Assembly: GCA_963736005.1 (NCBI GenBank)
Contig: CAVTNB010000001.1
Span: forward strand, 1,536,001 to 1,600,000
Reading direction: 5' to 3'
DNA from: an uncultured Pseudomonadota bacterium
Lineage (GTDB): Bacteria > Vulcanimicrobiota > Vulcanimicrobiia > Eremiobacterales > Eremiobacteraceae
DNA length: 64,000 nt
Shown: one piece after another, positions 44,551 through 63,259 of the stretch
How positions within the stretch are numbered: the first letter of the stretch is position 1
Layout of the letters: the number at the start of each line of letters is the position of its first letter
Notes under the pieces: model-generated
Database searches by the model: none
What the model was told of the DNA's origin: nothing
Seen by the model: the letters and a program-made list of their open reading frames with translations, nothing else
Program-made: the position numbers and the translations under genes

Positions 44551-47349
44551 TCAACTAGTGAGCGACTCGGCCTGTGCACCCAAAGGTCGACCAGCAGCGA
44601 GGGTAGCGGCGATCTCCACGCGCGAACGCAGTCCGCACTTGCCCAAAATATTTCCAACGTGGTATTCCACCGTGCGGCTGCTGATATGCAAGATCTCGCC
44701 AATCTCCGCGTTGGTCTTACCGCTTGCGATCAAGAATGCAACCGAGGCCTCGCGCGATGAAAGCGCACCATGGGCCTCACGCTTGCGCCCCGGCCGAAGT
44801 CCATGGGCGCGCGCAAGTGCACGCGCTCGATCCGCGGCAAACTCAGCCCCCATGGCATCAAAGGTTTCGATGGCGTCTAAGAACAGCTGGCGCTCGCCCG
44901 TTGCCTGCGCCACGATCAACTCCAGATGCGCGCGCCAAAATGGATATTCGCAATCGCGAGCAGCTTGCAAAAGCTGGTCTGCACCGCGAGAATCTCCGCG
45001 CGAGAGTGCCAAACACCCCTCTGCTTCGAGCAACGAGCGTTGCGCTATCGGCCAACCGCGAGTCGCGACAGTACGAAGATGTTCAAGGGCTGATTCGGAT
45101 GCCTCGAATTCGCCGAGTTGCGCGGCGAGTCGAACGATGCCGGCCAGCGCGCGGACGTGGTAGACTTCGCAAAAATCAGAAGGTGCAAGACCCGAGATCA
45201 CCTCGGTATATCGAGTCAGCGCTTCCCCATAGTGCCCGTGAAGCTCGGCCGAGAAACCAGCGCTAAAGGCGACCGCCTGTCGCGCAGTTGTGGAGAGGTC
45301 AAGCAGTCGCCCGTCATCGAGCACGCGCCTGGCGGACTCGAAATCACCGAGCATTGCATACAATTGGATCTGGAGACAGAGTAAACGAGAACGCAAAGTC
45401 AGCTTGTTCGCGGCGATCGAGGATTCCGCCGTGAGTGCTAATCCCAGTGCTTCTCGCAGATCGCCGCGATCGATTGCCACACTTGCGAGGTTTGAACGCA
45501 AGGCCGCCTCGATCGCCTTTGACTTGGGACCGCTCGCGTCCAGGCCGACTCGACACCAATGTTCGTATCGTTCCTTGTCGCCGGCCATATGGCTAACATA
45601 GCAGAGGATTGAGCAACAGCGCGCGAGCTCGTCAGAGAGATGCCATGCGGTCGCCCGGCGCGCGGCGGCCTCAAGGCTCTCCAGGCTCTCATGGACTTTG
45701 CCAGTGCGAGCGACGACAACACCGAGCCAACCTATCAGACGTATGAGAGATCGACGGTCCTGAGGCTCGTGGCAAAGAGCAACGCCTTGCTCCAAGATTT
45801 GCTTCGCGGTATCGAGATTGCCGCGTCGCTCTTCGATTGAACCCAGCAGGTAGTGGAGTCTTGGAAGAAGATCGGGTGCGACCGCGCGAGCCTCGCCTAT
45901 GGCTTCTTGAGCGAGCGGCAAGGCCACAGCATCATCGTCGGTCGCGTCCCAGATCGTTTCAGCATACAGCGTTCGAACTCTCGCTCGCACGCTTGGGGAT
46001 AAACGAAGAGCAAGCGTTTCAAATGGGGTGATTGTCGCCTTTGACTCGGAGGAGCGCCCCAGCGCGAGCAGCGCGGTAGCTTTTCCGGCGCTCGCTTCGA
46101 CTTCGATCTGGCTGCCCAATTCGCTGCGCTCGAAGGCGCTCTCAAAGGCCTGTAGTGCCTCGAGGGGCGCATGTCGTTCGAGGCTCTCCCAACCTATCTT
46201 GTTAAAGAGACTGGCCGCGTCGAAAAATCGGCATGCGCCGTCGAGATGCGCTGCGCGCTTCCAATCATTTTTGCAGCGGTCGGCAAGAACAGCATGCATC
46301 TCAATGCGTTCTTGCTCGTTGAGCATGGAGTAACACGCTTCGCGCAACAGATCATGACGGAACTGATAGCGTCCATCGATCTCCTCAAGGATTGCCTCAT
46401 TCACTAGTTCTGCTGTTGCGTGGGTGATTCGTCCAGGCGAACGCCGAGCGAGAATACTCAGATCCGTATTCGAGAGCGCATCGATATTGACCGAAAGCCA
46501 ACTCGCGACGGCGAATGCCTCGCGAGAAAGAGCAGTGATCCGCTGTCGGAGCACTTGACCCAGATCGCTCGAAGCTGAACCGTTTCCCAACATGGGCGCA
46601 ACGACAAGGAGCTCGGCATAGAGCGGGTTGCCGCCGGTGCGTCTGCACAATTCAGCAATTTCTAGATCGCCAAAATCAGCCTCAGGTCGCAGTCGGGTCA
46701 CGAGCAGCCTGAGGTCGTCCGATGAAAGACCTCCGAGATTGATGACGCGGCCAAGTTCAGCGCGCTCCAAGGCAGACGCAAGGTCGATGACGGACGGATT
46801 GCTGCGTCGTGCCGCGAGCTGCCAGTGAATGGGGAGATCGCACAAACGTGTCGCGCAGTAACGGATCGCCTCAAGAGTCTTTTCGTCTGCTAGGTGAACG
46901 TCGTCGATTTGGATGGTCAGTGGGGCCTCTGCCGCCGCAACTCCCAACGCGTCGCGAAAATACAAAAGCCAGTCGGACTCTGATGATCCAAGCAGCGCCT
47001 CAAGCTGTGTCCTAGGCACACGGGCCGCGCGGTGCAGCAAGTGCAAGAGTGCGATAAGCGGATCGAAGGAGATGGGTGTACTGGTGGGCACGCAGGCGAT
47101 GTTATAAGTATCAGCGAGCCCGCGACGGCGACCTTCAGCGAGCAGCCGGGTCTTGCCGATCCCGGGTTCCCCAAAGATGACGGTACAACTGCGCTCGGTC
47201 TCTGCGAGCGCCGCGAGCACGGCGTCCCGCCCGACCAAAGCGGCGGACGATATCCACGCGCCGCGCTTAGGACTGGGGATTCCACTAGTGAGTACGCGGG
47301 CATCCTCGCTTACCCTAGGATTTAGGCCGGTCTTAACCCCGTCTCTCAT
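44551..47349 (-). CDS. AAA-ATPase/TPR/LuxR-HTH transcriptional regulator (MalT/LAL-like)
   Basis: LVGRD, GEPGIGKT, IDDVH, GGNPL, FRHDL, C-terminal LSSRE..G.TN.EI..RTVEYH. Confidence 0.88.
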   Translation of the reverse strand: MRDGVKTGLNPRVSEDARVLTSGIPSPKRGAWISSAALVGRDAVLAALAETERSCTVIFGEPGIGKTRLLAEGRRRGLADTYNIACVPTSTPISFDPLIALLHLLHRAARVPRTQLEALLGSSESDWLLYFRDALGVAAAEAPLTIQIDDVHLADEKTLEAIRYCATRLCDLPIHWQLAARRSNPSVIDLASALERAELGRVINLGGLSSDDLRLLVTRLRPEADFGDLEIAELCRRTGGNPLYAELLVVAPMLGNGSASSDLGQVLRQRITALSREAFAVASWLSVNIDALSNTDLSILARRSPGRITHATAELVNEAILEEIDGRYQFRHDLLREACYSMLNEQERIEMHAVLADRCKNDWKRAAHLDGACRFFDAASLFNKIGWESLERHAPLEALQAFESAFERSELGSQIEVEASAGKATALLALGRSSESKATITPFETLALRLSPSVRARVRTLYAETIWDATDDDAVALPLAQEAIGEARAVAPDLLPRLHYLLGSIEERRGNLDTAKQILEQGVALCHEPQDRRSLIRLIGWLGVVVARTGKVHESLESLEAAARRATAWHLSDELARCCSILCYVSHMAGDKERYEHWCRVGLDASGPKSKAIEAALRSNLASVAIDRGDLREALGLALTAESSIAANKLTLRSRLLCLQIQLYAMLGDFESARRVLDDGRLLDLSTTARQAVAFSAGFSAELHGHYGEALTRYTEVISGLAPSDFCEVYHVRALAGIVRLAAQLGEFEASESALEHLRTVATRGWPIAQRSLLEAEGCLALSRGDSRGADQLLQAARDCEYPFWRAHLELIVAQATGERQLFLDAIETFDAMGAEFAADRARALARAHGLRPGRKREAHGALSSREASVAFLIASGKTNAEIGEILHISSRTVEYHVGNILGKCGLRSRVEIAATLAAGRPLGAQAESLTS

Positions 47350-47968: not shown

Positions 47969-48352
47969 TTAGTAGCCTGAAACAAGATCGAGGCCAGCAG
48001 CTTCAACGAAAGCTCGGAAGTCGCGATCTCGCGTGAGAAGAGGAACACCTCCATCAAGACAGCTCTGGGCGATCAGTGCATCGCCCAGGCGAGCCTTCCG
48101 TCGAGTAGCCAGTACTTTTGCCCGCAATTCCCCCGCTCGTCGCCAATACCCAGACTCGACGTCGATCATCGGCACGTCAGACAGCGTTTCGACGACCGCG
48201 GTGGGTAGTTCGGCATCGCTCAAAAGCTCTGTGAGCACGACAGGCACCATGAGTACTTGACGATCCGCCAGTGCCCGGTCGAGCATCTCCACATCCTCGC
48301 CTCGGCCGCCTCGAAGGAAAGCAACCCACGTGCTTGTGTCGGCCGCGATCAA
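47969..48352 (-). CDS. vapC: PIN-domain (VapC) toxin
   Basis: ADTSTW, VLTELL, DALIAQ, LLTRDRDF. Confidence 0.9.
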   Translation of the reverse strand: MIAADTSTWVAFLRGGRGEDVEMLDRALADRQVLMVPVVLTELLSDAELPTAVVETLSDVPMIDVESGYWRRAGELRAKVLATRRKARLGDALIAQSCLDGGVPLLTRDRDFRAFVEAAGLDLVSGY

Positions 48353-50200: not shown

Positions 50201-52975
50201 ATGTCGCCCGGAACTGGGGCCACCCCTCGAGGTGAGAGCCCCGTTACTTTGCCTTCGGGTACTATCACGTTTTTGTTCTCGGATATCGAGGGCTCGACGC
50301 AACGTTGGGAGAGTCACCCCGGGGCGATGAAGCCAGCCGTTGCGCGCCACGAGCAGCTCGTGGCGGCGGTGATGGCGCAGCACGGCGGATATATTTTCAA
50401 GACGATGGGAGATGCGCTCTGCGTCGCCTTCCCGACTGCGCCTGACGCGGTGCGAGCTTCGATTGATGCGCAGCGCGCACTCGCGAACGAAGACTTCTCC
50501 GCCGTAAGCGGCCTACGAGTGCGCATGGGGTTGCATACTGGCTACGCGGAGGAACGTAACGGCGACTATTTCGGCCCCGCGGTCAACCGAGTCGCACGTC
50601 TCATGTCCATCGGCCATGGCGGCCAAGTGTTATTGTCGGCCGTGACGAGGGCGCTCGCGCACAACGATCTACCGCAGGGCTCTTCCCTCACGGACCTCGG
50701 GTCCCAGCGGCTGCGCGATCTGACCGAACCAGAGCAGGTCTGGCAATTGACCATTACCGGACTTGCGAACGAGTTCCCACCGCTGAGATCTCTCGACACG
50801 TTGCCCAACAATTTGCCCATGCAGGTCACGAGCTTTCGTGGCCGCGATCAGGATCTCGAAGACTTGAAAAATCTGATCGGTAAGCATCCGCTCGTAACGC
50901 TGCTGGGGTCGGGAGGTGTCGGCAAGACTCGCCTCGCCCTGCAGACGGGAGCGGAGCTGCTCGACCGCTTCCCCGATGGGGTTTGGCTTGCCGATCTTGC
51001 AACCATAACGGATCCGGAACTGGTCTCGAGCGTCGTCGCCAAAGTTCTGGGGATGAGCCAGCAGGAAGGCCAGCGAGTGGATGAGTCGCTGCCTCACTGG
51101 CTGCGACGGAAGAAGCTGCTCATCATCTTGGACAACTGCGAGCACGTCGTGGAGGCTACAGCCAAGCTGGCCGAAGCGATCATCCGCTCTTGCGCGGATG
51201 TGCGACTTCTCAGTACATCCCGTCAAGCGCTGGGCATTCGCGGTGAGGAAGTCCTCAGGGTTTCTTCGCTTGATGTGCCGCATCGAGTAGCCGATTGCAC
51301 GCCGGAGACGGCGATCACATTTGGCGCCGTTGCGCTTTTCGTCGATCGGGCCCGTTCGGTAGACAAATCGTTCGAGCTGACGGACGATAACGCACCAATC
51401 GTTGCAGACATTTGCCGGCGGCTCGATGGCATACCGCTCGCCATAGAGCTTGCCGCGGCTCGGGTGAAGGTGCTTTCCATCCCCAACTTGGCACAACGGC
51501 TCAACGAGCGTTTCAAGCTTCTCACCGGTGGCAGCCGCGATGCAGTTCCTCGACAGAGGACCTTGAGCGCCCTGATCGACTGGAGCTACGATCTTCTCAG
51601 CGCGCAAGAGCAGAAGCTGTTCTTGCGTGCGGGAGTCTTCGCCGGCGGTTTCAGGCTGGACGCTGCTACGGCCGTCTGCGGCGAGGGCATGGATGAGATC
51701 GATATCTTGGATCTGCTCTCTTCGTTGAGCGACAAGTCTCTGGTCGTTGCGGACACCGGCGGCGAGCAAGAGCGATACCACCTTTTGGAATCAACGCGCG
51801 CCTACGCTTTGGAGAAGCTGACCGCGTCGGGTGAACGCGAACGCCTGAGTCGCCGCCATGCGGAGTATTTCCGCGATCAAGCCCAGGCGGCGGATGAGCG
51901 CTATGGGATAGGTTCGACCTATGTCTGGCTTGCCAACGCGGAACTCGAGCTCGACAACTATCGTGCGGCGCTCGAATGGTCCATCACAGAGAACCACGAC
52001 ATGATCGTGGGCGGCGCGATCGCGGGGGCATTGGAGCAGGTCTGGTATCGCGGTGGGCTCACCACCGAAGGCCGCTACTGGATCTCCGCAGCGCTCGAAC
52101 GGGGCAACTATGCCGGACAGCCTTTGATCGCGGCGCGCTTGTGGCGCGCTCTTGGGTTCATCCGGTCGGGCAAGCCAGCATACGAAGCGGCGGAGCGAGC
52201 ACGCGTACTCTACGAGGAAGCTGGCGATAAGTGGGGAGCCGCTCGTGCTAAGGGGGACGCGGCGTTTGCATTGAGACAGATGGGTCGGCTTGACGAAGCA
52301 GTTGAGCTCCTTACGCAAGCGATAGACACATCGCGCTCCTTGGGAGACAAATTTGGAGTTCTCATGGGCCTGAGCACGAGAGGCGGATGCGCGTACAACC
52401 TCGGTGACTTCAAGTTGGGTCGAGAATATTATTCGCAGGCCCTCGCGCTGTCCAAAGAGCTAGCGAACGACATGCAGACCTCGTTTGTCCTGTCGAACCT
52501 TGCCGAACTTGAATTTGCAGATGGCCATGCCGATGAAGCGTTGCGGTCGGCAAAAGAGCTTGCAGAACAGCGCACACGCTCGCAAAACTTGACCAACCTC
52601 GCGACCAGCAAGACCAATGTTGCTGCCTATTGTATCTGGCTTGGTCAACTCGATGAAGCTTGCCAGTCGGCCAGGGAGGCGCTTTATATCTCGCGATCGA
52701 TAACAGCGCTCTACTCCACTTCGATCGCCTGCCAGCACCTCGGGCTTATCGCCAGCCTCCGCGGCCGGCCTCAGGTGGCAGCTTCGCTTCTTGGGTTTGT
52801 CAACGAGCAGTACCGCAAAATCGAGACCGAACGCGAACCAACCGAAAAATTGTGCTACGACAAGTTCATGGCATCGCTGCGGGAACAGCTCAGTGAAACG
52901 GAGATCGAAAAGCTTCTGGCCGAGGGCGCTCGATGGACAGAGGATAAGGCGATCGAGGTTGCGCTCGAGCTCTAA
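50201..52975 (+). CDS. Adenylate/guanylate cyclase domain + NB-ARC-like ATPase + TPR protein
   Basis: FSDIEGST, RVRMGLHTG, VNRVARL; GSGGVGKT, LDNCEH, LDGIPLAIELAA; C-terminal helical repeats. Confidence 0.9.
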   Translation: MSPGTGATPRGESPVTLPSGTITFLFSDIEGSTQRWESHPGAMKPAVARHEQLVAAVMAQHGGYIFKTMGDALCVAFPTAPDAVRASIDAQRALANEDFSAVSGLRVRMGLHTGYAEERNGDYFGPAVNRVARLMSIGHGGQVLLSAVTRALAHNDLPQGSSLTDLGSQRLRDLTEPEQVWQLTITGLANEFPPLRSLDTLPNNLPMQVTSFRGRDQDLEDLKNLIGKHPLVTLLGSGGVGKTRLALQTGAELLDRFPDGVWLADLATITDPELVSSVVAKVLGMSQQEGQRVDESLPHWLRRKKLLIILDNCEHVVEATAKLAEAIIRSCADVRLLSTSRQALGIRGEEVLRVSSLDVPHRVADCTPETAITFGAVALFVDRARSVDKSFELTDDNAPIVADICRRLDGIPLAIELAAARVKVLSIPNLAQRLNERFKLLTGGSRDAVPRQRTLSALIDWSYDLLSAQEQKLFLRAGVFAGGFRLDAATAVCGEGMDEIDILDLLSSLSDKSLVVADTGGEQERYHLLESTRAYALEKLTASGERERLSRRHAEYFRDQAQAADERYGIGSTYVWLANAELELDNYRAALEWSITENHDMIVGGAIAGALEQVWYRGGLTTEGRYWISAALERGNYAGQPLIAARLWRALGFIRSGKPAYEAAERARVLYEEAGDKWGAARAKGDAAFALRQMGRLDEAVELLTQAIDTSRSLGDKFGVLMGLSTRGGCAYNLGDFKLGREYYSQALALSKELANDMQTSFVLSNLAELEFADGHADEALRSAKELAEQRTRSQNLTNLATSKTNVAAYCIWLGQLDEACQSAREALYISRSITALYSTSIACQHLGLIASLRGRPQVAASLLGFVNEQYRKIETEREPTEKLCYDKFMASLREQLSETEIEKLLAEGARWTEDKAIEVALEL

Positions 52976-53796: not shown

Positions 53797-54075
53797 CTAA
53801 GAGATGGCTTTGACCTCATCCAGCTTGACACCGCGGCCAGCCCGAAGACTCTTCCGCGCCTTTTCGACACGCATCAAAAACCGTGGATCATTTTCAAGCC
53901 GGTAGTCAAACCACTCGTCATCCGATTCGAAACCGATCAAAACACCCGCAGGCCTTCCATGGCGCGTGATTACGATTTCTTCCTTTGCTGCCTCGCGAAG
54001 AAATCGTGACAAATCATCCTTCATCTCAGACAGCGGAACCTTCCTTATTCTGGTTCGGCGAATTGTGCTAGCCAT
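53797..54075 (-). CDS. Phd/YefM antitoxin
   Basis: LSEMKDDLSRFL..EEIVITRHGRPAGVLI; true start may be ~54048 (ATA). Confidence 0.85.
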   Translation of the reverse strand: MASTIRRTRIRKVPLSEMKDDLSRFLREAAKEEIVITRHGRPAGVLIGFESDDEWFDYRLENDPRFLMRVEKARKSLRAGRGVKLDEVKAIS

Positions 54076-54395: not shown

Positions 54396-54869
54396 CTAGT
54401 ACGTTCTCCGCGTACAGGACGCACCGTGCATGCTGCAGACTTGGAGATAGAGGCGGTCGACGAGGTCCCATTCTCTTGCGACCGTTGGGGTGTGCGGCAG
54501 CGACTCGATGATCTGCAGCGTCCCGCCGATATCGCCTGCCCCTTCAGACCAGGGTAAGAATCCGTAATGCATGCCGACTGCAGTCGCGTCCGCAAAGGAC
54601 ACCGAATAGAGCAGTCGAGGCGCACTGTCATCGCACGACTTGAACTCTTGTGCACCCTCCAGCGCGTAGTGGTTTATCGTGTTCCACGAAACCTTCGCCG
54701 AGTAGTCGTTGCTCGAACCCTCGTAACTTTGGACGTCCTTCGCCTTTGCGCTGATCGCGTTGGCGTCAGCAGCCAAATTTTTGCAGCCAGCATTGGCCGG
54801 CTGAGCAAAGAGTACCGTGCCGGCACATATCAAGAGCACAATGATGAAAGTAGAGCTTTGCAGCCTCAT
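54396..54869 (-). CDS. Secreted hypothetical protein, probably leaderless
   Basis: Signal peptide (..PANA); TATAAT lies 6 nt upstream of ATG 54869. Confidence 0.65.
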   Translation of the reverse strand: MRLQSSTFIIVLLICAGTVLFAQPANAGCKNLAADANAISAKAKDVQSYEGSSNDYSAKVSWNTINHYALEGAQEFKSCDDSAPRLLYSVSFADATAVGMHYGFLPWSEGAGDIGGTLQIIESLPHTPTVAREWDLVDRLYLQVCSMHGASCTRRTY

Positions 54870-55122
54870 GCTTGAATTATAGGCCCATCCAATCACAACG
54901 GAGATTGACCGCAGTCACCGTTTTCGGCCATTGGGGTACGATGGCACAAAAGCCTATCGGTAGCCATCTCCTTCAGAAGACCTTGGCCCAGAAGGTCGCG
55001 CCTGCCTAAAAGGCAGGCGACGACTTAGTATCACTTTGGTAAGGCCTAGTGTGACCCGGAATGATTCCAACGGCGACCTGTCACCAATAATTCTATTGCG
55101 TCGATGCTTACCGGGCGAGCTC

Positions 55123-55152
55123 AAAAAAGAAAACCACCCGCATAACGGGTGG
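55123..55152 (-). terminator. Intrinsic terminator
   Basis: CCACCCG-TTATG-CGGGTGG followed by TTTTCTTTTTT. Confidence 0.85.
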
Positions 55153-55171
55153 GTGCTAGTAGCAGTCTCTC
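55123..55171 (-). ncRNA. ~49-nt sRNA antisense to the adjacent tRNA-like RNA
   Basis: Own promoter, 17-nt 5' seed GAGAGACUGCUACUAGC, then an intrinsic terminator. Confidence 0.7.
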
Positions 55172-55178
55172 GCGGGTC

Positions 55179-55207
55179 ATTATAGCACATACACAAGCGT
55201 CGGGCAA
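55179..55207 (-). promoter_or_regulatory. Strong sigma70-type promoter
   Basis: TTGCCC-N17-TATAAT with extended -10 TG. Confidence 0.8.
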
Positions 55208-55256
55208 GATGGATTCACGCAGTCCTCACCGTCGTGAACCCTCCGCTGCGCGGAGC

Positions 55257-55322
55257 TGGAGGCAGCGGGGATCGAACCCGCAGCAGACGGTTTGAGAGAC
55301 TACTACTAGCCAGCTTGCCCCC
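55257..55322 (-). ncRNA. 66-nt non-canonical tRNA-like RNA (Ala-type acceptor, CUC loop, reduced D arm)
   Basis: GGGGGCA/UGCCUCC-A acceptor with G3-U70; T arm GCGGG-UUCGAUC-CCCGC; CU-CUC-AA loop at canonical distance from the T arm; no encoded CCA. Confidence 0.7.
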
Positions 55323-55398
55323 AGCACCATCCTTATCGCGCACGGTTAAGCGAACGTCAAGCCTGAAAACTAACGAGCAGCTGGGCGTCGGCGTGGGA

Positions 55399-56133
55399 CT
55401 ACCGATTGTTCATGCGGTCGAAGATCCGGCGGCGATCTTCGTACGACGCATGCATGGCTTCTTCGGAAAAACCATACGACACCTCGATGCTTCCGGCGCG
55501 GAGTTGCGTAAACGCGGCGTCCGCAAATTCGTCGAGGGGCGTGGCCCATGTGTGGAGGCCTGGACCGCCAAGATCCGTGTTGACTGCGGGCGGTGCGATC
55601 TCGATGACCTCGACGGGCGTTGCGGCGAGCTGTCGGCGCAAGGAAAGCGTAAACGAAGCGATCGCAGCCTTGGTTGCGCAGTACACCGGTGTTGCGGCGA
55701 GCGGCACATACGCAAGCCCTGACGAGATGTTGATGATCGCAGGTTCCTGTTGTTTGCGAAGGTGCGGCAGCAAGAGCATGCTTAGGTGAATTGGTGCTTC
55801 TAAGTTGATCGCGATCTCATTGTGGCATGACGACCAATCGATGTCATCATTCAATGACAGCCACTGTTGAATGCCGGCGTTATTGACGAGAATGTCGAGT
55901 TTTGGGAAGGCTTTGATCGTCCAGGCCGCGAGTTGTTTGCGCTGGTCGGGATCTGCGACATCGCACACACGGGTGTGCAGTGAAGGATGAGCCTCGTGCG
56001 CCTCACGGAGCTTATCCTCGCGCCTGCCGCAGATAATGACCTCGTTGCCTTCGGTGAGGAAACGCTTGGCAAAGGCAAAGCCAATGCCGCTCGCGCCGCC
56101 CGTCAGGAGCATGGTGTGTCCGGTCAGTTTCAT
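55399..56133 (-). CDS. Short-chain dehydrogenase (DltE-like)
   Basis: TGGASGIG, NNAGIQ, YCATK, PPAVNT. Confidence 0.9.
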   Translation of the reverse strand: MKLTGHTMLLTGGASGIGFAFAKRFLTEGNEVIICGRREDKLREAHEAHPSLHTRVCDVADPDQRKQLAAWTIKAFPKLDILVNNAGIQQWLSLNDDIDWSSCHNEIAINLEAPIHLSMLLLPHLRKQQEPAIINISSGLAYVPLAATPVYCATKAAIASFTLSLRRQLAATPVEVIEIAPPAVNTDLGGPGLHTWATPLDEFADAAFTQLRAGSIEVSYGFSEEAMHASYEDRRRIFDRMNNR

Positions 56134-57060: not shown

Positions 57061-57471
57061 TTAGCAAACGATGCAGCGGATATATTTGGTCGCCTTCGCG
57101 TATTCGTGAATCGGACTGTCTCTGGTTAAAAGCCGCGCGCCGTACGCAGCGGCCGTGGCGATCAAAATGCAGTCCGCAGGATCACCCTGAAATTTTCCTG
57201 GTAGCTCGGTTGCTGCCAAAGCAATAGCGGGCGTCAACGTGGCAGTCAGCACGCCCGGCTGGGCAAACAGTGCGCGAATGTAATCTTGTGCAGGGGTCGC
57301 GAGAATGAGCCGCCCCTTGCGCACGAGCATGCCTATTTCCCACGCGCTAATTGGCGAAAGCAGAAGCTCACCGCGCTTGGCGGCATCATCCACAGCTCCG
57401 GCGATAGCTGGTGCTATTTTACCCTCGACCGCCCAAACTGCAGCATGCGTGTCAAGCAAAATTGGGTTCAT
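57061..57471 (-). CDS. vapC: PIN-domain (VapC) toxin
   Basis: LLDTHA, SPISAWEI, DPAD.ILIATA, LLTRD. Confidence 0.9.
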   Translation of the reverse strand: MNPILLDTHAAVWAVEGKIAPAIAGAVDDAAKRGELLLSPISAWEIGMLVRKGRLILATPAQDYIRALFAQPGVLTATLTPAIALAATELPGKFQGDPADCILIATAAAYGARLLTRDSPIHEYAKATKYIRCIVC

Positions 57472-62381: not shown

Positions 62382-62846
62382 CTACTTGAAGAGGCGCTGA
62401 TCAATCGTCACCGGCTGAGGCCGGCCGACTCTGATCCTGCGAAAAGCGGCGTGCTCGGGATTGAGCAGATAGTTGAGTTCCAAAGGGACGATGGCAGACG
62501 GAACCTTGAGGACGGCCGTCTTCCCTCGTTTGATCCAATCGTCGCCAAATTCGCGCAAGACTTCCACTGGCGGATCGTAACGCTGCCAATGTTTCGGTAG
62601 CCGGGTGAGGGCGACCGTCTCGCTGGTAAGATCGTCAGGAACATCTGCCCAAATGGACATAATCTCCCGCGGCGCATGCAGCAAGCTGGTGTGAACGAGA
62701 TATTCGAGGGTTGCCAGGGCCAGCGTGTCGCTCGTATAGACGACGCGGACGCCGGAACTGTTCCAGCGTCCGCCGGCAAGACGTGCGCCTTCGCCCGTGA
62801 AGGCGTCAGGCAGGCGCCTTCGTCTGACAAGCCGCCAGACCCGCAC
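62382..62846 (-). CDS. RES-domain toxin
   Basis: VWRL..F.GEGA..GGRWN..VY.S..LA.LE..KVPSAIVP.E.NYLLNP.H. Confidence 0.92.
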   Translation of the reverse strand: MRVWRLVRRRRLPDAFTGEGARLAGGRWNSSGVRVVYTSDTLALATLEYLVHTSLLHAPREIMSIWADVPDDLTSETVALTRLPKHWQRYDPPVEVLREFGDDWIKRGKTAVLKVPSAIVPLELNYLLNPEHAAFRRIRVGRPQPVTIDQRLFK

Positions 62847-63259
62847 TAACTGACGCCACCATAGTCGAGGCGAGTGAGCACTTGCTCCACCCGGCGCAAG
62901 CCCGAGTCGGTATCCAAGAATTCGACCGGCGCCTTCCCGCCGAGCGCGACGATGGGATCATGCAACCAGGCGATGACGGCATTGCGCCGGTTCTGAAAGA
63001 CTTCGAGCGCGAGCGTGAGGACGCGCGCGAGGCGCACTGCTCGATCAGATTCAACTGCATTCAACTTGCCTCGGCCACGTTTGCGCGCGAGCGTGCGGCT
63101 CGACACGCCGAGCGCGGCCGCCAGCTGTTGATGGTTCAGCCCGCCAGCTTCCGCCAGGCGCAACGCTGAGGCCGCCGGCAGCCCTTTGCGGGTGACGTCG
63201 ATGAGGTCAGGTTCCTGGCTGACAACTCCGAGAACCCGCGCGATGGATGCATTGGTCAT
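62846..63259 (-). CDS. Xre/MbcA/ParS antitoxin
   Basis: GLP, S.RTL.R, ESDRA.RLARV, WL..P..ALGG..P. Confidence 0.92.
   Translation of the reverse strand: MTNASIARVLGVVSQEPDLIDVTRKGLPAASALRLAEAGGLNHQQLAAALGVSSRTLARKRGRGKLNAVESDRAVRLARVLTLALEVFQNRRNAVIAWLHDPIVALGGKAPVEFLDTDSGLRRVEQVLTRLDYGGVS

Follow-up and report, generated by a model that had tools for sequence, protein, structure and literature searches.

Alanyl-tRNA synthetase (AlaRS) recognises G3:U70. Trans-encoded antisense pairs are known from type I toxin–antitoxin loci and from RNA–RNA ('type VIII') toxin–antitoxin pairs, and YrlA is an RNA whose tRNA-like module is bound together with Ro60/Rsr and whose ends lie in the Ro-binding stem. 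Alanine identity is independent of the anticodon (see PMC10543346), and the tRNA-like domain (TLD) of transfer-messenger RNA (tmRNA) has no anticodon stem-loop, SmpB occupying that space (PMC4131195). Here we describe a 66-nt element, TL1, on the minus strand (55322..55257) of a window of 64,000 nt from an uncultured bacterium of the Eremiobacteraceae (contig CAVTNB010000001.1 of the host assembly, G000, which comprises 2.84 Mb in 6 contigs and is 84% complete). TL1 heads a module whose parts lie on one strand in the order tRNA-like RNA (TL), two hairpins, a sigma-70-type promoter, a small RNA (sRNA) and a terminator. A covariance model, R1, built from eight TL copies (75 positions, 24 pairs) finds 29 copies of TL (termed f1-type), scoring 41–95 bits, in 14 of the 32 family genomes, spread over 5 of 10 genera with 1–5 copies per genome; real tRNAs score at most 43 bits with the same model. 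On balance we read TL1 as a functional RNA gene of an undescribed, lineage-restricted family of tRNA-like or tmRNA-TLD-like RNAs under antisense control, and we are highly confident that TL and the sRNA are a real, co-evolving pair of RNAs.

Comparison with described RNAs

TL shares with the tmRNA TLD the G3:U70 pair and A73, an acceptor/T minihelix and a long helix at the position of the anticodon stem. The likeness proposed in a first-pass annotation of this DNA, made from the sequence alone, extends to the acceptor itself, which in many f1-type copies is identical to that of the hosts' tmRNA (GGGGGCG/CGCCUCC-A), and both the sister type of TL found in a sister family and TL2, a paralogue of TL1 in the same genome, carry a G(G)UnUCGAC stretch resembling the tmRNA 5' region. 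The Rfam tmRNA model (RF00023) aligns TL copies end to end at 20.9–38.5 bits, against a cut-off of 47, and 76-nt presumed tRNA genes score similarly with it (39–43 bits). TL differs from tmRNA in its length (66–79 nt across both types), in lacking the internal mRNA-like domain, the tag frame and the pseudoknots, in having its long helix closed by a 7-nt loop, and in a tRNA-type T loop (UUCGAUY) unlike the T loops of the hosts' tmRNAs. It is, moreover, multi-copy, accompanied by a cognate antisense sRNA, and present in addition to one full-length tmRNA in every genome checked, namely G000 (an ordinary tmRNA at C3:145744-146094, tag ANSEYALAA) and five of five carriers surveyed for it.

With tRNA-Ala, TL has in common an alanine identity that is independent of the anticodon and a 7-nt loop in register, and the first five acceptor pairs of TL1 are those of the host tRNA-Ala. 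It departs from tRNA-Ala in having no 5-bp anticodon stem, variable loop or 8–9 linker, in carrying C33 in 11 of the 29 copies, in not being called by the tRNA finder ARAGORN, and in having an antisense partner. Like type I and type VIII pairs, the module contains an adjacent, separately promoted small RNA with about 17–25 nt of near-perfect complementarity, occurs as several pair-specific copies per genome with a patchy spread, and has an antisense partner that outlives its target. Unlike in type I loci, the target is a tRNA-shaped RNA rather than an mRNA, and no conserved open reading frame (ORF) is seen by eye: a 35-codon frame of TL1 from the ATG at 55329 is broken by stops in L162:11259, the single other copy checked by eye, and a small toxic protein was not found in this comparison.

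YrlA resembles TL as a non-decoding RNA with a tRNA-like elbow of T arm and D loop; in TL, by contrast, the RNA ends form an acceptor stem. Identity with YrlA or another Y RNA was rejected, there being no Ro60 (TROVE domain) match in the 84%-complete G000 assembly and no Rfam match to a Y RNA. The tRNA-Other of Bacillus cereus (PMC3399842) is likewise tRNA-shaped, non-translational and located beside an island; it comes from an unrelated lineage, its abstract reports neither alanine identity nor an antisense partner, and the likeness is one of description only. The module is a member of none of these groups. The TL family is absent from Rfam 15, and a full-text literature search, which did not cover subscription journals, found no comparable module.

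Fold and alanine identity set

TL1 and the elements assigned to it are:
55254..55326, minus strand: tRNA-like RNA TL1, with core G1 to A73 at 55322..55257, supported by an Rfam tRNA match, R1 and covariation
55316..55322, minus strand: acceptor 5' strand GGGGGCA, pairing over 7 bp with UGCCUCC at 55264..55258
55265..55281, minus strand: T arm GCGGG-UUCGAUC-CCCGC, canonical
55282..55307, minus strand: long arm replacing the anticodon stem and variable loop, from the RNAalifold consensus
55294..55310, minus strand: stretch complementary to the sRNA, running from the D region through the arm's 5' strand into the loop as far as the third 'anticodon' base, 17 nt at 94%, listed as inverted repeat I5
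55332..55360, minus strand: probable TL1 promoter, TTGACG at 55360..55355, a 17-nt spacer and GATAAG at 55337..55332

The features that the first-pass annotation had listed for TL1 are all present: the 7-bp acceptor, G3:U70 (55320 and 55260), discriminator A (55257), the T arm, a weak inner stem, a short D region (AGCUGGCU) and no encoded CCA, A73 being followed by GCU. That annotation had also placed the loop in canonical register, and the 7-nt loop CUCUCAA (55298..55292) does lie there, but the 5-bp anticodon stem and variable loop drawn around it are replaced by one long bulged hairpin. The 26 nt between the D region and the T arm form an outer helix, in which AGUAG (55307..55303) pairs with CUGCU (55286..55282), and an inner helix, (A)GU/A(C)C, with an A:C mismatch. 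The outer helix, which had been offered as an alternative fold, is the conserved one: across the copies all five of its pairs show changes on both sides and it is 97% paired. Leader UGCU and trailer GCU lengthen the acceptor helix to 10 bp, the three pairs past 1:72 being formed by leader GCU with trailer AGC, which corrects the earlier description and means that A73 is paired in the TL1 primary transcript. R1 scores TL1 at 81.1 bits (E 3.5e-15) and the Rfam tRNA model (RF00005) at 30.2 bits, with a gathering score of 29; ARAGORN called no tRNA or tmRNA within the 64-kb window. The probable TL1 promoter ends about 10 nt before the start of the helix. A motif pair of the form TTGAC/TTTAC ... 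GTGAT(A), unlike the textbook promoter of the sRNA, stands at a constant distance 5' of most of 27 TL copies and is a candidate TL promoter; a consensus promoter scan did not call the pair upstream of TL1, whose second hexamer is without the final T.

In the alignment of the 29 copies, 94.2% of 677 pair cells are standard and 16 of the 24 pairs, accounting for 103 cells, are changed on both sides. Not one of these measures was reached in 500 shuffles, and sliding the partners by 1–3 columns reduced pairing to 37–50%. Both-sided changes occur in two of the three pairs of the inner arm (helix 3) and in three of the five pairs of the T stem (helix 4), which is 97.9% paired. The conserved arm comprises a 5-bp outer helix, an internal loop, a 3-bp inner helix and the 7-nt loop and abuts the T stem directly; it accompanies a mini D hairpin with GG. 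The family does not form a cloverleaf, having no 5-bp anticodon stem, no variable loop and no linker bases 8–9 or 26. The loop reads C-Y-G-U-C-A-M in most copies, and examples of the loops are CUGUCAA, CCGUCAA, CUACCAA, CUGCGAA and AUGAUAA. Position 33 is U in the 18 copies that do not have C; in the sister type, 5 of 16 copies, read by eye, have a base other than U there.

The alanine identity set proposed for TL1 proved to be a property of the family. Pair 3:70 is GU in 27 of the 29 copies, the exceptions (L183 and L184) being visibly broken, while neighbouring pairs covary: 4:69 changes from GC to CG in three copies, and 6:67 and 7:66 also covary. A73 is present in all 29 copies, and TL1 has both determinants. 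A wobble pair fixed inside a covarying helix is the pattern expected from selection for recognition by AlaRS. The chances that TL is in fact alanylated appear evenly balanced, judged on sequence. CCA is likewise not encoded in two of the three host tRNA-Ala genes, so CCA addition exists in this organism.

A cognate small RNA complementary to TL

The elements downstream of TL1 are:
55241..55255, minus strand: trailer hairpin 1, CUCCGC-GCA-GCGGAG, directly 3' of the acceptor
55212..55240, minus strand: trailer hairpin 2, with an 8-bp stem and a 13-nt loop, read from the sequence
55179..55207, minus strand: sRNA promoter, TTGCCC-17 nt-TATAAT with TG before the second hexamer, 10 of 12 consensus matches
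55123..55173, minus strand: cognate sRNA of about 50 nt, with the antisense stretch at 55171..55155, the terminator at 55152..55134 and its U tract at 55133..55123

The sRNA at 55155-55171 is complementary to TL positions 13-29 with one mismatch, a G:U at U21 (U at 55302, G at 55163). The first-pass annotation had seen this G opposite U21 and supposed an ancestral C; the pairing is indeed conserved, and a related strain represented in two DNA runs has C at this position, giving a Watson–Crick pair with the sRNA G. The wobble in TL1 is therefore tolerated drift rather than design. Among the 25 longest of 49 inverted repeats (spacing up to 250 nt, 64-kb window) this 17-nt repeat is the only pair that is at least 90% complementary. 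The predicted gain on TL1:sRNA heterodimer formation is −14.4 kcal/mol, compared with −1.0 ± 1.7 for 200 shuffled seeds.

Of the 29 copies, 28 are followed by a stretch that can pair over 11–33 nt with their D hairpin, arm 5' strand and loop; five real tRNAs in the same loci, taken as a control, reach 6–11 nt. Duplex lengths and mismatches were scored with an equal penalty for all mismatches. The stretch begins at +75 to +118 in 27 copies and at +44 in L184, which has an internal deletion; L183 is without one. The complementarity is also pair-specific, as in RNA–RNA toxin–antitoxin systems: when each TL is set against 29 partners, the cognate sRNA comes first for 23 of the 29 TLs, and of the six others two (L179 and L184) are slice artefacts, one (L183) has no sRNA and three rank their cognate second. 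Mismatches within the duplexes of the f1-type copies are G:U in 28 cases and A:C in 2 (binomial p about 9e-7, the copies being kin and not independent), and in the sister type G:U in 13 and A:C in 4, including two mis-anchored rows. A strand-specific bias of G:U over A:C points to constraint on RNA–RNA pairing and not to a DNA inverted repeat. At orthologous sites in sister species (L165:5257 and L176; L178 and L182) the scaffold is the same whereas both the arm and the sRNA sequences differ, and the 3' strand of the arm changes with them. Such co-variation of three strands fits a switch between an intramolecular hairpin and an intermolecular duplex.

The sRNA, of ~45–50 nt in the family, is made from its own promoter about 85 nt downstream of its TL. 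In the other copies the promoter, read by eye, is TTGCAA-like and TATAAT-like with 17 nt between, followed by 5–8 nt to the first paired base. Given this constant spacing, the sRNA 5' end, placed by the position of the promoter, should sit on the TL loop. A promoter scan found one site where 0.5 was expected. In many copies the complement to TL overlaps the 5' half of the sRNA terminator stem.

A hairpin occurs at the position of hairpin 1 in the f1-type copies, with differing sequences. The loop of hairpin 2 repeats 6–11 nt of the sRNA seed (an anti-loop copy) in roughly 18 of the 29 f1-type modules, with a mean match of 7.6 on the diagonal and 6.3 off it. This loop could also pair with the TL loop and 5' strand; the anti-loop copy is weak in TL1.

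Two candidate roles and one database match for this part of the module were rejected. The idea that the sRNA encodes the tag-like part of a split tmRNA was discarded, the in-phase frames of the TL1 and TL2 modules being wholly different and running through the terminator. Anti-termination of a downstream gene by TL was set aside as a main role, since that gene is often convergent and never conserved. A match of the Rfam Pseudomonas rnk leader over the sRNA (19.4 bits where 55 is required, E 2.3) was taken as chance.

Loss and decay of the module

None of the 22 TLs scoring at least 60 bits lacks an sRNA. In G002, a genome of the TL1 genus, the orthologue of TL1 is gone whereas the sRNA promoter, the sRNA and the terminator are kept at 88% identity; the TL2 orthologue in the same genome has lost part of the T arm and the acceptor, and its 14-nt match to the sRNA is perfect. 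In L183 the sRNA has been deleted and the acceptor strands no longer pair. These few cases fit a TL that cannot be kept without its antisense partner.

Comparison of the G002 locus (L186/L002, C5:~790300-791100) with 54396-55400 of the window showed that the sRNA and a small secreted-looking ORF (54396-54896) stand in opposite order in these sister species. G002 also lacks TL, hairpin 1 and half of hairpin 2, one breakpoint lying inside hairpin 2.

Proposed mechanism and alternative explanations

Starting from the genes, the fold, the conserved identity set and the cognate, co-varying complementarity at the RNA level, antisense control is the most economical mechanism. We propose that the sRNA would nucleate on the exposed TL loop and zip through the arm, competing there with the 3' strand of the TL hairpin itself. 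The L-shape would thus be unfolded in its D/anticodon half while the acceptor/T minihelix stayed intact, and TL would be switched off or the duplex of ~20 bp exposed to degradation. That the sRNA neutralises TL through such unfolding we consider probable. Free TL would probably be trimmed, given CCA and charged by AlaRS, and the charged RNA would engage the tRNA- and tmRNA-binding machinery without decoding. The pair would then act as an RNA-only toxin–antitoxin or addiction pair with pair-specific recognition, behaviour that is suggested by the pair specificity, the variation in copy number, the fast turnover of the specificity region and the pattern of decay, and that we advance only tentatively.

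A more speculative formulation, to which we give no greater credence, is that these are the first natural, stand-alone, tag-less RNAs of the tmRNA-TLD kind. Once alanylated, they would target the translation apparatus, be it stalled ribosomes, SmpB or EF-Tu, or serve as dedicated alanine donors. Each would be restrained by a co-evolving antisense sRNA of its own, the two forming an addiction or immunity pair made of RNA only, in which the specificity region is rapidly replaced from one species to the next. In a bolder variant, the sRNA might gate conditional mis-incorporation of alanine at the codon matching the loop triplet. If such a reading were true, the module would be a new class of bacterial RNA system, consisting of a non-decoder-like RNA of alanine identity and a dedicated antisense RNA, and would provide a third kind of G3:U70 RNA beside tRNA-Ala and tmRNA as well as a natural test bed for an aminoacylated tRNA-like domain without an anticodon or tag template. 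The module also shows two separate genes keeping about 20 nt of complementarity while their sequence diverges between sister species.

Several observations weigh against a functional, antisense-controlled and charged TL1. TL1 is one of the weaker copies: besides the A:C in its inner helix, its D hairpin is degenerate and its hairpin 2 matches the anti-loop sequence poorly. In its genus the module looks eroded, TL being lost in G002 and none being found in G001 or G003. Maturation of TL to a chargeable end is assumed, as the leader is base-paired with A73 and the positions that follow it. No dedicated partner presents itself: there is no second AlaRS or SmpB in the family genomes and no Ro in G000. 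The toxin–antitoxin interpretation leans on few decay cases. The 29-copy alignment was fitted to the R1 model and its members are kin, so that p-values are overstated. Finally, no terminator was found between TL1 and the sRNA promoter, and the one RNA contig from this locus fits a TL–sRNA co-transcript better than two RNAs.

The last two points lead to the alternative that survives best, which we nevertheless judge rather unlikely, namely that TL, the hairpins and the antisense stretch are one co-transcribed precursor. The antisense stretch would fold back on the arm, the hairpin-2 loop possibly kissing the TL loop, to guide TL folding or processing by RNase III, P or Z, and the internal promoter would only top up the 3' part. 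In keeping with this, the predicted fold of the 241-nt stretch 55340..55100 pairs the two complementary stretches (−109.1 kcal/mol), and the anti-loop copies described above would serve it. Nine of ten public sequencing runs listed contain part of the stretch, only one of them being RNA. That one is a soil metatranscriptome, whose contig X7 (151 nt, depth 2, about 95% identity) covers 55131..55281, from the T arm to the U tract of the terminator. X7 is a weak hint of a read-through transcript, with DNA carry-over possible. On the other hand, the internal promoter is conserved in sequence, in its 17-nt spacing and in distance, which points to a separate 5' end at the antisense stretch, and G002 keeps promoter, sRNA and terminator after losing TL; the precursor is in any case compatible with antisense control and not exclusive of it.

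It is less probable still that the sRNA regulates mRNAs elsewhere and that TL serves as a stable, tRNA-shaped decoy that titrates it. Spacers linked to tRNAs are known as sRNA sponges, the sRNA is built as a seed-plus-terminator regulator, and the orphan sRNA of G002 can persist alone. The seed, however, is different in almost all copies and even at orthologous sites, which leaves no conserved mRNA target. Apart from the opposite strand of the sRNA gene, TL1 is the only site in the G000 assembly within three mismatches of the 17-mer target, in a search that covered the 17-mer and not seeds of 7–10 nt. A sponge would also leave the conserved G3:U70, A73 and T arm unexplained.

The first-pass annotation had suggested that TL1 could insert alanine at GAG codons, and in its general form this would make TL an alanine-charged tRNA reading GAG (GAC, AUC and others in other copies) in a regulated mistranslation, with the sRNA masking the anticodon. 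The identity set, the 7-nt loop with a purine at 37 in register, the sRNA 5' end covering the anticodon position and a long arm (8–9 bp) roughly equal by eye to the D stem plus the anticodon stem all lend themselves to this, as do ARAGORN calls of three of the 16 sister-type copies as tRNA-Ile(GAU) or tRNA-Val(GAC). Decoding is disfavoured by C33, by the geometry of the arm, which leaves no linker or variable loop, and by the failure of tRNA finders: no f1-type copy among the 29 is called by ARAGORN, nor anything in eight homologue-bearing loci, and Rfam searches of seven other loci (about 12 copies) gave no tRNA match to E 0.1, one tRNA-Sec match reaching 28.4 bits where 47 is required. The loop triplet is not conserved, and G000 has its own tRNA-Glu(CUC) and tRNA-Glu(UUC) among 46 tRNA genes, which include three tRNA-Ala. 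Given C33 in particular, decoding of GAG as alanine is unlikely, and the wider idea of a decoding tRNA very improbable.

A decayed tRNA or tmRNA attachment-site scar, or a DNA inverted repeat around an invertible promoter segment, finds some support in tRNA 3'-half scars elsewhere in G000, by a tyrosine integrase 96 nt from one of three TLs in L162 and by repeat arms that flank a promoter, but is largely refuted by a two-stranded TL with compensatory changes in all four helices, by conservation across two families, by the strand-specific G:U bias, which is senseless for DNA repeats, by the lack of a recombinase conserved nearby and by contigs of four runs that show no inverted joint. The exact match of the 3' half to a host tmRNA or tRNA end that had been expected of a scar was looked for and not found: the T arm and acceptor of TL1 differ from the host tmRNA and from all three tRNA-Ala, and the 5' strand is present and covaries. 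The four runs were compared with the locus as contigs only, from which transcript starts, ends, strand and level cannot be read and in which uncovered parts are no evidence.

Distribution and further copies

The 32 family genomes searched with R1 include the unpublished G008, G011 and G013, which gave tRNA-level matches only. Beyond the family, R1 matched 17 of 116 sampled genomes of the sister family within the class, at 48–57 bits, and none of 70 sampled genomes from 19 further families of the phylum. BLAST matches to the T arm in five related genomes correspond to six further modules. Inspection of the sister type covered 12 loci in 10 genomes, with 16 copies of 79 nt. Their acceptor is GGGGCGC/GCGCUCC, their D stem has 4 bp, they have a single trailer hairpin, and they often form tandem arrays; an antisense stretch of 13–22 nt is present in 14 of the 16, at +39 to +75. 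The three copies called as tRNAs by ARAGORN (L190:401-479, L196:108-186 and L196:422-500) carry G3:U70 and A73, and such copies are therefore probably mis-annotated as ordinary tRNAs in public genomes.

The paralogue TL2 lies outside the window, 36 kb from TL1 (G000 C1:1627267-1627375), and its module is arranged like that of TL1. The TL2 sRNA is complementary to the arm of TL2 itself, which differs from the TL1 arm, over 11 nt and then 3 more past a bulge. TL2 (L179:5068-5176; flanks C1:1627050-1627420) spans 109 nt and has an additional 5' hairpin, a UUUCGAC stretch resembling the 5' region of the host tmRNA, and U3:U70 in place of G3:U70; it looks like a decaying or divergent copy. Tandem modules were seen in L196 (G051:C3:689400-690950), with four full copies and a fragment 310–620 nt apart, and in L172 (G009:C15), with two modules head to tail; the three TLs of L162 (G047:C1:320000-337000) lie within 6 kb. 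Genuine tRNAs stand up to about 220 nt from TL, one with anticodon GGG just upstream (L170:4862-4943) and one with anticodon CGU about 215 nt downstream of a module (L175:2609-2682). The sister-family tmRNAs L205 (of G080) and L206 (of G051) have an unusual T-arm end, ...GGGGGGCAGUACCCC..., replacing the GUUCRA-type loop.

In viral contigs, an exact-pattern scan with the f1-type 3' pattern gave five loci, all resembling tmRNA or tRNA 3' ends from other organisms and without the sRNA part, and the f2-type exact pattern gave none, the exactness of the patterns making this absence weak. The loose pattern CAAACCG...GGGTTCGA..CCC matched 121 loci over genome contigs, 106 of them in ordinary tRNAs (mostly Ser and Gly); no module was present in the flanks viewed of the remaining 15.

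Genome context

The module appears to stand alone. The 103 ORFs flanking modules have no common family, from which it follows that there is no conserved protein neighbour; the neighbours of TL include nusA-infB, groEL, dnaB, cyclase/STAND proteins and one tyrosine integrase. Each of the 32 family genomes carries a single SmpB and a single AlaRS gene, the latter broken into several frame pieces in G000 and G046. A dedicated protein partner was rejected on these grounds together with the TROVE/Ro search of G000.

Within the window, toxin–antitoxin genes at 47969-48352, 53797-54075, 57061-57471 and 62382-63259 encode two PIN-domain ORFs, a Phd/YefM antitoxin, and a RES toxin with an Xre-like antitoxin; none of these is conserved beside TL copies elsewhere. 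Two regulators of about 930 amino acids each lie at 44551-47349 (minus strand) and 50201-52975 (plus strand), one with AAA_16, TPR and LuxR helix-turn-helix domains and the other with adenylate/guanylate cyclase, NB-ARC/AAA and TPR domains. Cyclase/STAND proteins flank three TL copies in other genomes (L167, L169 and L170).

The tRNA 3'-half copies of G000 that lie apart from full genes, at C1:2615, 69009, 76990 and 1652826 (Val-, Asp- and Ala(CGC)-like T arm plus acceptor), are typical traces of island integration. The sole AlaRS gene of G000 (C1:1872698-1874136) is split into five or more frame pieces and contains in-frame TGA codons. Given this and the 84% completeness, the assembly probably carries indel errors, and single-base indels within the window are to be read with care.

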